Assembly: GCA_052168235.1 (NCBI GenBank) | Contig: JBQLZK010000007.1 | Coordinates: 97,833 to 161,832 of the forward strand | DNA: 64,000 nucleotides | Direction: 5' to 3' | From: Thainema sp. | GTDB lineage: Bacteria > Cyanobacteriota > Cyanobacteriia > Phormidesmidales > Phormidesmidaceae | In this document: positions 20,385 through 63,569 of the stretch, one piece after another | Numbering within the stretch: the stretch's first letter is position 1 | Layout of the letters: each line of letters begins with the position of its first letter | The notes under the pieces: model-generated | The model's database searches: none | Seen by the model: the letters and a program-made list of their open reading frames with translations, nothing else | Told to the model about the DNA's origin: nothing | Translations under genes and position numbers: made by a program

Positions 20385-21032
20385 ATGACTGACTTTCAAC
20401 CCAATCCTAAACCGTCTGAATCGTCCGCCTCTGCTGAATCGTCCGTACCCAAAAGTAACAACGTGTGGAAGTGGGTGGCGATTGGCTGCGGTGGAGCTTT
20501 CCTCCTATTTGTGCTGCTGATTGCAGGCACGACGTTTTTTGCCTTCCGCCAGCTCAACTTTTCAATGGATCCAGAAGAAGTCGAAGCCAAAGCCCGCACA
20601 GTCTTTGACTACGAAATTCCCGGTGGATCGCAGGGTTTACTAACCATGAATATGTTCGGCATCGAAATGATTCAGGTCACGGATACCAATCAGCCGCCGG
20701 AGATTATGCTGATGGTCGGCACTCTGCCGCCCGCTTTTCAAACCGAACAAACGCAGGAGCAGTTCCTGGAAGGGTTCCAAGACAGCCTGTCTGATCAGCA
20801 GCAGTTTGAAACCCAGGATCAGCGGATTGAAGAACGCCAACTCTGTGGTGAAACGGTTTCCGTCCTCATTCAAGAAGGCAGTGCATCAACTGGACAGTCG
20901 GCAGAACCTGCAACGACCTACTCTACCGTTGTCGCTTACGACGGAACAAGCCGCTTTGCCTGGTTACAAGCTAGTGGTGAGAATGCAAATGCACTGGCGG
21001 AGCAGGTGTTTACATCTCTCGAATGCCGCTAG
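20385..21032 (+). CDS. Hypothetical single-pass membrane protein
   Basis: WKWVAIGCGG TM segment followed by a soluble domain; coding-like ORF. Confidence 0.6.
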   Translation: MTDFQPNPKPSESSASAESSVPKSNNVWKWVAIGCGGAFLLFVLLIAGTTFFAFRQLNFSMDPEEVEAKARTVFDYEIPGGSQGLLTMNMFGIEMIQVTDTNQPPEIMLMVGTLPPAFQTEQTQEQFLEGFQDSLSDQQQFETQDQRIEERQLCGETVSVLIQEGSASTGQSAEPATTYSTVVAYDGTSRFAWLQASGENANALAEQVFTSLECR

Positions 21033-59950: not shown

Positions 59951-61180
59951 CTAGGTCTGGGATTGGCGGCAAATGCCAAATACTGAGGTGTAACCATGCA
60001 GGAACGTTGTGCCTTCAACGGGGCCGATTTCACCATTGCAGAAAAAGCCACTGAGAGCTGTTGGACCAATGTAGCGATGGAACAGCTGCGAATCAAAGTT
60101 GGGAGCTTCATAGAGCTGTTCACCCCGTCCCATACAGGCAAACATTAAGGCACCCGCAGGCTGAGTGGCAGCATGATTTTGGGTGTATCGCTCAAGCAGC
60201 AGAGCCAAATCTTCCGCTGAGGTTTTTGCATCTCGGAGGTGGAACTGGATGCGCTGCCCAGACCGAATGCGATCGCCAATTGCGATCGCGCCTGCTCGTG
60301 GATCAACCCCCAATAAATTACGAATCAAAAAGTCGCCTTGTTCCAGATTGCGCTTGAAGCTGCTTTGAGCCACGCCAATAAAGAGGGAATTTTGGGCCAG
60401 TGCCCGATCCTCTTCACTCAGTGTCTGAAAGAGTTCTTGCAGCACTTCCAGCGGTGAACGGAGTTGATCGGGATGGTCGGGATCTTCTAATTCCAACAGC
60501 ACATTGCGCTCACCTTTCGCCACCCGATAGGGCTGACCAATGGGACGACAGCCCTGCGCCACAATCGTATCTAGCACCAGATTTCCCGACAGCGCTACCC
60601 CAATCGTCCCTGATTTGTAATAGGTTTGACCGCAAAACAAACCACTGTCCCCCACCATATCCGTACTGGCCAGCCCTCCCACTTTGACAGAACCGGGATA
60701 GGCAAAATCGAGTCCCTGTAGCAAATTACTAATGCCGGACGACATCGGTGCGCCCAACAGAATGAACTGAGGCTGGGATGCAGGCGATACTCCAACCTGA
60801 TCAATCCACGCATCTGGGGGAGAATCTAAATCAGGCAAATTATCTTCGGCAATATGAAACGTCTGCACATCCACCTCTGGCATAGAGGCTAGACAAAGGC
60901 TGAGGGCTGGATTCGTTTCCACCTCTTGAGTTTGACCCGAACAGTCTCTACCAATGATGCCGCCACCGCTGCAGCCAATCAGGACGGGCAGATCGAGCTG
61001 CTCTTGTAACAGCGGCATCAGCCGAGAATATTCACTCGCAAATGCCGTCGAGATAAAAACCAGACCAAAATTTGCTGGTGCCGATAATGCTTGCTGCGTT
61101 CGTTCCACGACTTCCAACACAGCAGCTTCTAGAGACGGACGAGTTGAAAGGGCATTGGCCCACTGCATAGAATCCGGCAC
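59951..61180 (-). CDS. FIST N/C domain protein
   Basis: GCSGGG, GGLAS, QGCRPIG, FHLRD, F.C.GRG and GFFCNGEIGP...LHGYT. Confidence 0.9.
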   Translation of the reverse strand: MPDSMQWANALSTRPSLEAAVLEVVERTQQALSAPANFGLVFISTAFASEYSRLMPLLQEQLDLPVLIGCSGGGIIGRDCSGQTQEVETNPALSLCLASMPEVDVQTFHIAEDNLPDLDSPPDAWIDQVGVSPASQPQFILLGAPMSSGISNLLQGLDFAYPGSVKVGGLASTDMVGDSGLFCGQTYYKSGTIGVALSGNLVLDTIVAQGCRPIGQPYRVAKGERNVLLELEDPDHPDQLRSPLEVLQELFQTLSEEDRALAQNSLFIGVAQSSFKRNLEQGDFLIRNLLGVDPRAGAIAIGDRIRSGQRIQFHLRDAKTSAEDLALLLERYTQNHAATQPAGALMFACMGRGEQLYEAPNFDSQLFHRYIGPTALSGFFCNGEIGPVEGTTFLHGYTSVFGICRQSQT

Positions 61181-61253: not shown

Positions 61254-61305
61254 GAATAAGGCATTCCGTAGTGAAGCGGTAGCGGAACGGAGGGATGCCT
61301 TATTC
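61254..61305. other. Hairpin containing the predicted recombination site ATAAGGCA-TT-CCGTA (61256-61270)
   Basis: Perfect 11-bp arms GAATAAGGCAT / ATGCCTTATTC; the site matches both guide segments of the upstream non-coding RNA. Confidence 0.65.
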
Positions 61306-61317
61306 GCGCGCGCGAAA

Positions 61318-61350
61318 ATCCCCCCACCAGCGCGGGGCCAGCGGGGGGAT
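61318..61350 (-). terminator. GC-rich hairpin downstream of the IS110 gene, terminator-like
   Basis: Minus strand ATCCCCCC...GGGGGGAT followed by a short T run. Confidence 0.45.
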
Positions 61351-62582: not shown

Positions 62583-62842
62583 AATGTTCTCTAGCTCAGT
62601 ACTGCATTCTCGTTAAACCCGTCATCAATTGCAGGTCATCACCCCTTTAGAACCCGATCGCTAGAGAGTAGAGGCGCGATCCAGGCCGGATGTCAAACAA
62701 AACCCTTTTAGATACGGGGCGCGATTCAGGCCGCGTGTTCCGTAAACCTAAATAGGTCAATGCCTTATCAAGCCCGAATCGCGGTGTGATGGCTTTGGAC
62801 ACCACCACAGCGAGCGCGCGAAAGCGCTCGGTGTGAGGGTGG
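62583..62842 (-). ncRNA. Predicted bridge-RNA-like guide RNA in the upstream non-coding region
   Basis: Several stems with G-U pairs on the minus strand; a 12-bp stem closes an internal loop with segments AUAAGGCAUU and UACGGAA around a short hairpin, matching 61256-61270. Confidence 0.7.
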
Positions 62843-63100
62843 TTAGCGCTGCTGCTGAGCGATTTTATGGGCGTGGGTGATGAATTGGAGCGTGACGTGC
62901 TCAAGCTGTTCTGGCTGCAAAGTGCGATAGACATCTCCAGCGTCTTTTATAAGAAATTGGTGGACATCAACCTCACTTTGTTCAGTCAACATTGCGATCT
63001 CCACCGCGGCACTTTCTAGGGCTATGACGTAATGCGCAACAGCTTCTAGGAAGCAGGGGTTTAGAACGGAGATACCGGGGAATCTGGGGGAGTCTGTCAT
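62843..63100 (-). CDS. Small hypothetical protein of the phage-like cluster
   Basis: ATG overlaps the upstream stop (TAATG coupling at 63098-63102). Confidence 0.55.
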   Translation of the reverse strand: MTDSPRFPGISVLNPCFLEAVAHYVIALESAAVEIAMLTEQSEVDVHQFLIKDAGDVYRTLQPEQLEHVTLQFITHAHKIAQQQR

Positions 63101-63348
63101 TAGTTGTTGTCCTGTCGGTTCAAACGTTTAACATGCATTTCAGCGGCTGTTAGAGAGCAATGTGCATCCCATTCGTCGGCTTTGGCCTTGTTCTTGATGG
63201 CGTCGATTGCCAGGAGCGCAGATTCGCCAGTGATGGAACATTTACCAGCGCCGGGATAGTAAAGGTCTATCCACATTGCCTCCTCGTCCCATTCGGCATA
63301 GGCGATCTGATCGATGTTGTATGCGTTGCATCCAGTTTCTATGAGCAT
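63100..63348 (-). CDS. Small hypothetical protein of the phage-like cluster
   Basis: Start overlaps the upstream ORF; resembles short phage proteins (YNIDQIAYAEW). Confidence 0.55.
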   Translation of the reverse strand: MLIETGCNAYNIDQIAYAEWDEEAMWIDLYYPGAGKCSITGESALLAIDAIKNKAKADEWDAHCSLTAAEMHVKRLNRQDNN

Positions 63349-63569
63349 TTTTGCTGTGCCTCTCTCATGAGTTCAACGGGGTCAATGAAGACGACTTCAT
63401 ATTCATGTCTGCTGCTAGCTGAGATGCTGATTAGGCCGCGCACGTAGATTTCAGCGTGAGAGCGGAATTTGAAGGCGGCGACGCAATGGGGATGACCGAT
63501 GCAGGGACGGTGATAGACGCGATATTGGAAGCGGGAAACGATATGATTGGCGGTAACTTTGGAAGTCAT
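63339..63569 (-). CDS. Small hypothetical protein of the phage-like cluster
   Basis: AAAGGAG RBS upstream of the ATG; overlaps the next ORF. Confidence 0.55.
   Translation of the reverse strand: MTSKVTANHIVSRFQYRVYHRPCIGHPHCVAAFKFRSHAEIYVRGLISISASSRHEYEVVFIDPVELMREAQQKCS

Follow-up and report, generated by a model that had tools for sequence, protein, structure and literature searches.

Directionality is the open weak point of bridge recombination. According to the available part of the IS621 report (PMC13626964), IS621 excision is about 2,000-fold weaker than insertion because the excision substrates span both loops in an X shape. The same portion of the text describes handshake pairing as setting the direction of IS621, a promoter formed at the circle junction as driving its RNA, excision as possible with donor loops alone, and engineered bubbles as an aid to excision. 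Cores other than CT have already been published for bridge systems (PMC11208160, as far as the available text goes). The IS110 recombinases of filamentous prophages are thought to integrate and excise the provirus (PMC11437467, likewise in part).

The window analysed here, a 64,000-nt stretch of Thainema sp. DNA, belongs to contig C7 of genome G000; G171 is a genome of the same genus, and X1, X2 and X4 are public runs. The window encodes an IS110-family recombinase (Table 1) whose PF01548 match of 43.7 bits (cut-off 29, E 3e-11) marks the N-terminal RuvC-like DEDD domain as present. The RuvC-like motifs align to IS621, and E59, D101 and D104 are invariant in 27 recombinase proteins, with D or E at position 9 (D9). 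PF02371 reaches only 18.1 bits, below its cut-off of 21.3. Despite this, the C-terminal Tnp domain is recognizable from Foldseek and from the invariance of S322 and G323 in 27 relatives, and S322 probably corresponds to the catalytic serine S241 of IS621. The best solved matches are IS621 and ISCro4, both by profile and by fold. The predicted structure (pLDDT 93) aligns to IS621 in Foldseek over about 400 columns (E 6e-10, TM 0.46-0.59). Named relatives of the recombinase are cyanobacterial.

A recombinase match is carried by 22 of 173 genomes of the family. From 28 matches, 12 elements with 10 distinct targets were analysed, in which both junctions and the same RNA scaffold were readable. Nine full-length loci with other RNA layouts were left out (L004, L011, L014-L016, L018-L020 and L027; L029 repeats L027), as were fragments and split genes (L017, L021-L023, L026 and L028). 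L004 carries a direct repeat of its own within the RNA and, past the gene, an inverted repeat of 23 bp; in L011 the left arm is doubled. Metagenome scans returned 0 and 2 loci, one repeating L010 and not counted, the other with a different RNA layout; a scan of genome contigs returned one locus, which appears to repeat L012. No relatives were found in viral contigs or GenBank phages, and 0 of 12 viral motif matches carry element genes. Genome G054 holds two elements with duplicated junction stretches on contigs C4 and C5 (L024, L008, L028, L101), and a truncated second recombinase lies 13 kb inside one of them, reflecting either an assembly error or a nested insertion.

Table 1. Features of the element end and its host flank, in window coordinates.
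Feature	Position	Strand	Basis
Host FIST-domain gene, left flank, outside the element	59951..61180	-	Pfam FIST and FIST_C; G171 orthologue beside empty site
LT, host left target arm, directly after -10-like TAGAAT	61256..61263	+	Identical in G171 empty site and in X2/X4 contigs
Core at left junction, TT	61264..61265	+	TC in target and far junction; TT in joined ends
RD, first bases of the element	61266..61270	+	Missing from empty site; follows LD in X1 joined-ends contig
Inverted LT copy inside element end	61292..61305	-	Hairpin with 61254-61267; changes with target
Terminator-like GC hairpin and short U run after recombinase gene	61315..61348	-	Sequence; also in homologues
IS110-family recombinase, 401 aa	61377..62582	-	PF01548; profile and fold matches to IS621/ISCro4; single copy in genome
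Right-donor guide 62607-62615 (degenerate) and handshake UG 62605-62606	62605..62615	-	UG complementary to LT end
Left-donor guide	62638..62647	-	8/8 with LD at far junction, contig C104
Right-target guide 62693-62699, handshake CA, second closing strand 62675-62686	62675..62699	-	7/7 with empty target, including core TC
Spacer	62707..62719	-	Would mask extra guide in fold B; would pair donor-loop 3' strand in fold A
Extra right module: guide 62738-62744, handshake CA, first closing strand 62720-62731	62720..62744	-	RD match 7/7
Opening strand 62772-62783 and left-target guide 62759-62768	62759..62783	-	Common to both folds
5' hairpin	62800..62841	-	Fold; site of hammerhead-like motif in most homologues
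Three small element genes, co-directional with RNA and recombinase	62843..63569	-	61-90% identical to G171 element genes
End of multi-copy repeat, where contig C7 stops; element resumes on C104	63946..64000		Repeat copies; G171 comparison

A preliminary description of this locus had reported a loop whose two guide segments spell out a 15-bp site downstream of the recombinase gene. The match holds exactly: the minus strand at 62759-62768 equals 61256-61265, the right segment at 62738-62744 is the reverse complement of 61264-61270, and the two overlap on TT. The 15-mer occurs once in the window and nowhere else in the 7.5-Mb genome. Shuffling the 260-nt RNA region produced such a guide pair with a site within 500 bp past the stop codon in 0 of 1000 cases, against 78 of 1000 with a site anywhere in the window, so the significance comes from the position beside the gene and from the homologues. 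A second exact 14-mer of the left junction occurs at position 20746 of G000 contig C67 (minus strand; about 8746-8760 of L001), with about 0.06 expected by chance. This copy overlaps the start of a gene in a plasmid-like region, which we take to encode a type I restriction-modification methyltransferase-like protein.

The site had been read as an intact target or donor, and this reading does not stand. The 15 bp are almost certainly a hybrid junction made of the host left arm, the core and the element end, as judged from assembled sequence. In G171 the FIST orthologue carries no insertion, and its flank reads ATAAGGCA-TC-AAACA, followed by a small host gene that is presumably CP12-like. The same empty site occurs in contigs of runs X2 and X4; the strains behind these three empty sites may never have carried the element. 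The right flank in G000 lies on contig C104 and is preceded by AAGGGGTG-TC, the LD|RT far junction. Since the empty site and the far junction divide the arms in this way, positions 61256-61270 read as LT from the host, the core, and RD from the element. On these alignments the element is shown to be bounded by LT|RD at window position 61264 and by LD|RT on C104. The reciprocal case was also found, a site occupied in G171 and empty in G000. The idea that target and donor share a left arm, both starting with LT, was rejected, as the genome contains no such far junction and C104 refutes it.

One X1 contig (506 nt, depth 12.8) links the far end to position 61264 as LD-TT-RD, and it may represent a circle or tandem junction in a relative of the window element. 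With TC in the target, TT in the donor, TT at the left junction and TC at the right junction, the crossover falls after the first T. The TT core put forward initially is usual for the family, being found at both junctions in 9 of 12 elements (a count that includes one register shifted by hand), but the empty target and far junction of the window element carry TC, so that only the first T is common to both of its junctions. The two other elements have overwritten left junctions. Far junctions were located by walking to the tyrosine recombinase gene; a blind search for guide-like word pairs did not find them. The far junction is on a separate contig in seven elements. Junction pairing is backed by empty sites for L002, L008 (5/5), L009 (5/5) and L006 (4/5), and for L007, L012 and L025 it rests on guide match or elimination. 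A search for the L024 empty site gave a 14-mer match in 0 of 7 loci.

Several side observations concern the junctions. Low-depth contigs of relatives in X4 (61263-61296) and X2 (from 61307) have other flanks or inner arms, suggesting further targets. L012 has a second TT and right-target arm 9 bp inside its junction, perhaps the scar of an earlier event. In L006, a group I intron (RF00028, 1994-2254) in an apparent tRNA gene lies about 125 bp from the left junction. In 8 of 10 targets, the core is preceded by a -10-like hexamer (xAxxxT) that ends 5-8 nt away, the distance being 6 nt in six of them, against a background of 0.10-0.33 per position. By this sequence pattern, the elements seem to insert at host transcription starts.

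The G171 element measures 10.7 kb, and four others on single contigs measure 11.9-18.0 kb. These five measured elements have a common gene set whose last member, immediately within the far junction, encodes a 162-aa tyrosine recombinase. A PF00589 gene adjoins the far junction in every element traced to its end. Among the 16 proteins of the G171 element are one collagen-repeat protein with tail-fibre PHROG matches, one weak holin match (E 9e-4), one integrase and one protein resembling unnamed, mostly viral clusters (0.93). Neither a capsid nor a terminase was found among the 16. By gene content, the element is phage-like and not a proven prophage. The element genes include a conserved 151-aa protein, and the three small genes 5' of the RNA have no Pfam match. 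The G000 assembly is without the element middle, a gap flanked by two multi-copy repeat ends. Both repeats, at the end of the window and at the C104 end, look like insertion-sequence ends, and G000 lacks a match to most genes from the middle of the G171 element. Gene and RNA are oriented against the LT-to-RD direction and close a series of small genes that point the same way. As the joined ends lie 3' of the gene and on the opposite strand, they would provide no IS621-type junction promoter for the RNA.

The RNA 5' of the recombinase gene is, with near certainty, an IS110 bridge RNA, as judged from pairing and covariation. Its guides follow the order left-target, extra right-donor, right-target, left-donor and right-donor. 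The preliminary description had recognized a bridge RNA with left and right guides on opposite strands, and this is borne out in the homologues, where guides covary with sites across 12 elements and 10 targets; it had missed the actual right-target guide, along with the donor loop and the large element. Rfam has no match to the bridge RNA itself, and the terminator-like hairpin after the gene was not among the consensus-scan results. The left-target guide matches 8/8 in all 12 elements. The right-target guide matches 43/50 positions over 10 targets (permuted mean 15.4, 0/100000 as high) and the left-donor guide 68/80 over 10 representatives (1/100000 permutations as high), figures that are inflated by relatedness among the elements. 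The donor-loop right guide is the weakest of the four canonical guides, with 0-3/5 ungapped matches to RD and 1/5 in the window. The extra guide also reads RD, which the donor-loop right guide matches loosely.

Handshake dinucleotides behave as in IS621 insertion, with pairing after top-strand exchange. The handshake after the right-target guide pairs with the LD end at 19/20 Watson-Crick positions in 10 elements (226/100000 permutations as high), and the one after the right-donor guide with the LT end at 15/20 (10 elements, 61/100000). For these counts, guide positions were assigned by eye on the scaffold and three registers were moved by one base; relatedness again inflates the permutation figures. 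Because of its handshake, the last module is the true donor-loop guide despite its poor match to RD.

The extra module lies between the two target guides in 7 of 12 elements, including the window; the other five are canonical. Its guide matches RD at 5/5 positions in four elements and with 4+1 wobble and 3+1 wobble in two, and at 2/5 in L010, whose RD is overwritten; against RT it matches 0-2/5. Because RD varies little, the case for covariation of the extra guide depends on L006 and L009. In 7/7, the handshake that follows this guide pairs with LD, a post-exchange pairing. The module occurs in three genera and requires at least two changes on the protein tree, with a single origin compatible with the well-supported branches.

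The closing strand is duplicated as a direct repeat with a spacing of 45, and this affects how the RNA folds. The minus strand of 62583-62842 is stable when folded freely (-98.5 kcal/mol, z = -4.0, 0/200 shuffles as good), but the 12-bp stem described between 62772-62783 and 62720-62731 is missing from this fold. The 5' arm pairs the second closing strand at about 62675-62686 instead, and the described stem forms if that rival strand is blocked. Since the free fold uses the second copy, the loop first described is suspected to be one of two alternatives. That loop had been taken to bind the target; it joins the left-target guide to the extra right-donor guide instead. It defines fold A, while fold B consists of target loop and donor loop with the extra guide partly paired. 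Both folds are buildable in 7/7 elements with the extra module when the active guides are held open, and as modelled they are probably mutually exclusive.

For naked RNA under imposed constraints, the window energies are -64.7 kcal/mol for fold B, -56.5 for fold A with a permuted loop and -56.0 for fold A with the donor loop intact (A2). Fold B is lower in energy in six of the seven elements, by about 2-11 kcal/mol; in L003 fold A reaches -53.6 against -50.8 kcal/mol for fold B. The permuted loop brings together the right-target and left-donor guides, the pair for the right junction, and it is clean only in 3/7 (L002, L003 and L006). Shuffling the 13-nt spacer at 62707-62719 in the window gave folds as stable in 4/100 cases for fold A and 1/100 for fold B. 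Spacer support for fold A is modest in L002, L003 and L006 (4/100 each), and the spacer gives fold A no support in the four genus-g12 elements, where 16-82/100 shuffles were as good.

Two further features accompany the RNA and the left junction. In 11 of 12 elements, all but L012, an inverted LT copy is found 28-73 bp into the element. The copy tracks the target, with best 9-mer matches of 81/90 in 10 elements (permuted mean 58.5, 0/100000 as high). By analogy with the engineered IS621 bubbles, it could form an extruded hairpin in which RD stays unpaired next to the core. An inversion switch between the hairpin arms was rejected, as no inner-right-arm guide was seen by eye and the swapped order occurs in 0 of 11 hairpin elements. 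In L005 and L010, the left junction 3' of the recombinase gene is a perfect palindrome that has lost RD, and the palindrome centre of L010 is inverted relative to L024. A palindrome with an inverted centre is a signature of template switching. These two are possibly locked elements or assembly artefacts.

Directly 5' of the RNA, a hand-made type I hammerhead-like motif with core and three stems matches 17 of 21 loci, 200-390 nt before the start codon (L005, L007-L010, L012, L013, L024, L025 and eight more); L004 and L027 have a long insert in stem III. Rfam model RF00163 matches 7 of 16 loci at 22.8-33.8 bits, all below its gathering cut-off of 34. Neither the motif nor Rfam finds a hammerhead in the window element, which has a plain hairpin at 62800-62841, a possible processing signal.

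We suggest that the extra module serves excision through a conformational switch of the RNA, a reading of the sequences that we favour slightly. In fold B, the left-target guide would close with the second right module, the donor loop would form, the extra guide would be hidden and the circle would insert. In fold A, the left-target guide would close with the extra module, and the left junction would be read as one full site. For the right junction, the reader would then be either the permuted loop, in which right-target and left-donor guides come together, or the donor loop through a half-match. Excision might thus proceed with insertion-like geometry, not with the poor cross-loop geometry of IS621, and a loop reading LT and RD in full would let the left junction bend like a target. 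The first loop of fold A would be complete 45 nt earlier in transcription and may therefore form first. Fold A would also release bases ahead of the start codon and might in this way link synthesis of the recombinase to excision. In predicted handshake pairs, fold B would gain four on insertion and lose four on excision; fold A on excision would be neutral with the permuted loop and gain four with a half-matched donor loop.

A wider model would join these parts. The bridge RNA might have two states, an insertion programme (LT+RT, LD+RD) and an excision programme (LT+RD, LD+RT through the permuted loop), with refolding in place of a protein directionality factor. In relatives, the RNA would be cut from a phage operon by the hammerhead, and the element end would copy each new host flank to give the junction hairpin. 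Taken jointly, this model is tentative and falls somewhat short of probable.

Other explanations differ mainly in what the extra module does. Tandem insertion, in which the first-described loop together with an intact donor loop inserts another circle at the occupied left junction, is unlikely. Fold A2 is buildable in 7/7 at the energy given above for the window, both handshakes would gain pairs after strand exchange, and the X1 LD-RD contig fits a tandem junction as well as a circle. However, no tandem copy was found in the five elements followed end to end on single contigs, although assemblies collapse tandems, and this explanation does not account for a spacer that rebuilds the right-junction loop in 3/7. 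Quite unlikely, too, is that the module is a functionless duplication or a guide-reprogramming intermediate, with fold B alone acting. The preference for fold B in 6/7 and the 5 of 12 elements without the module are as expected for a relic. The extra guide, however, fits RD at 5/5 where the donor-loop right guide of the window fits 1/5 ungapped, it has no match to RT, its sequence did not change between G000 and G171, whereas both the left-target and the right-target guide did, and the module is present in three genera. We consider it very unlikely that the module is a brake, with the junction loop parking the recombinase on the left junction or titrating the left-target guide and so blocking exit or re-insertion. 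Two IS621 target-loop dimers bind without forming a productive complex, according to the available part of that report (PMC13626964), and the inverted LT copy beside the junction could act as a decoy. Post-exchange handshake pairing with LD in 7/7 favours a reaction instead, even if this pairing could be a by-product of duplication.

Two explanations that set the bridge RNA aside or take its loop at face value fare worse. That the 162-aa tyrosine recombinase integrates and excises the element, with the IS110 gene as a passenger, would agree with the constant place of PF00589 beside the far junction in every element traced to its end. It is highly improbable given that the junctions have only 1-2 bp in common, the guides track both flanks across 10 targets and the left-donor guide matches the far end of the whole element. 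Barely credible is an ordinary loop reading an intact target or donor site with a TT core. Its perfect 10-nt and 7-nt matches are real, but the left arm of the site comes from the host and the right arm from the element, and the true target and donor carry other arms; the empty site already refutes this reading. Against the excision switch itself count the five related elements that do without the extra module, and no extra guide is strictly needed for excision, since IS621 can excise with donor loops alone.

If the switch holds, an RNA with both guide pairings would allow a large element to leave the chromosome without an excisionase, and it could serve as a template for switchable bridge editors. 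The ten natural retargetings, in which target guides, handshake dinucleotide and inverted DNA arm changed together, bear on the natural reprogramming of bridge RNAs. Should the switch prove wrong, the element would still have its boundaries, target, donor and full set of guides mapped.

A full-text literature search of the main texts available found no bridge RNA that reads a junction with one of its loops, switches between folds or carries a hammerhead. Also compared, in the portions of text available, were 10.64898/2026.08.31.748434, 10.1101/2025.10.25.684509, PMC12288879, PMC13604230 and 10.64898/2026.10.21.760802. Similar layouts could stand in figure S12 of 10.64898/2026.10.21.760802 and figures S8-S9 of 10.64898/2026.08.14.744561. 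Already published, as far as the consulted parts of these sources reach, are bridge RNAs, non-CT cores, IS110 elements of large size that occasionally have several donor loops, and the role of IS110 as integrase of a prophage.

Several described systems resemble parts of this element. Among large cargo-bearing IS110 elements, as presented in the available text of bioRxiv 10.64898/2026.08.14.744561, elements are likewise IS110-bounded and well over 1.5 kb, and one locus has several predicted donor loops with alternative guide assignments. Their cargo is mostly plasmid-derived and grown by accretion, and that portion of the text describes no loop reading a full hybrid junction and no fold switch. 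The Neisseria Nf and Thermus Zuza8, Zuza27 and phiOH16 filamentous prophages have an IS110 recombinase at the provirus end, as here (PMC11437467); the guide RNA is not analysed in the part of that report available. Unlike these prophages, the element here carries tail-like, collagen-repeat and tyrosine recombinase genes, and no inovirus hallmark gene was identified in it. The junction hairpin recalls the target stem-loop of ISPpu10 (bioRxiv 10.64898/2026.03.19.712850, in part), a DNA hairpin beside the site that adds a second layer of specificity. The ISPpu10 stem-loop is host-encoded and lies in the target, whereas the hairpin here combines a host arm and an element arm, exists only after insertion and has an inner arm that changes with each target. 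The motif 5' of the RNA resembles a type I hammerhead (RF00163) in its core and three stems, with a best score of 33.8 bits, but it stays below the gathering cut-off and is missing from the window's own element; cleavage by it is putative.

The closest systems remain IS621 and ISCro4 (PMC11208160, PMC13626964; PDB 8wt6, 9t56), compared on the parts of these reports available. The DEDD RuvC-like domain and overall fold are alike. So are the 5' non-coding RNA, with LTG, RTG, LDG and RDG pairing bottom and top strands around a short core, the handshake dinucleotides and, if the X1 contig represents a circle, the joined LD-core-RD form. Unlike IS621 and ISCro4, the window RNA has five guides, an RD guide inside the target loop and two closing strands, and the core is TT or TC instead of CT. 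Gene and RNA run opposite to LT-to-RD, with the joined ends 3' of the gene, in contrast to IS621. The elements here are 10.7-18 kb long and single copy, unlike the compact LE-gene-RE layout of IS621. By protein, guides and handshake, the sequences thus assign the window element to the IS110 bridge systems, and by its layout it is not an IS621-type insertion sequence.
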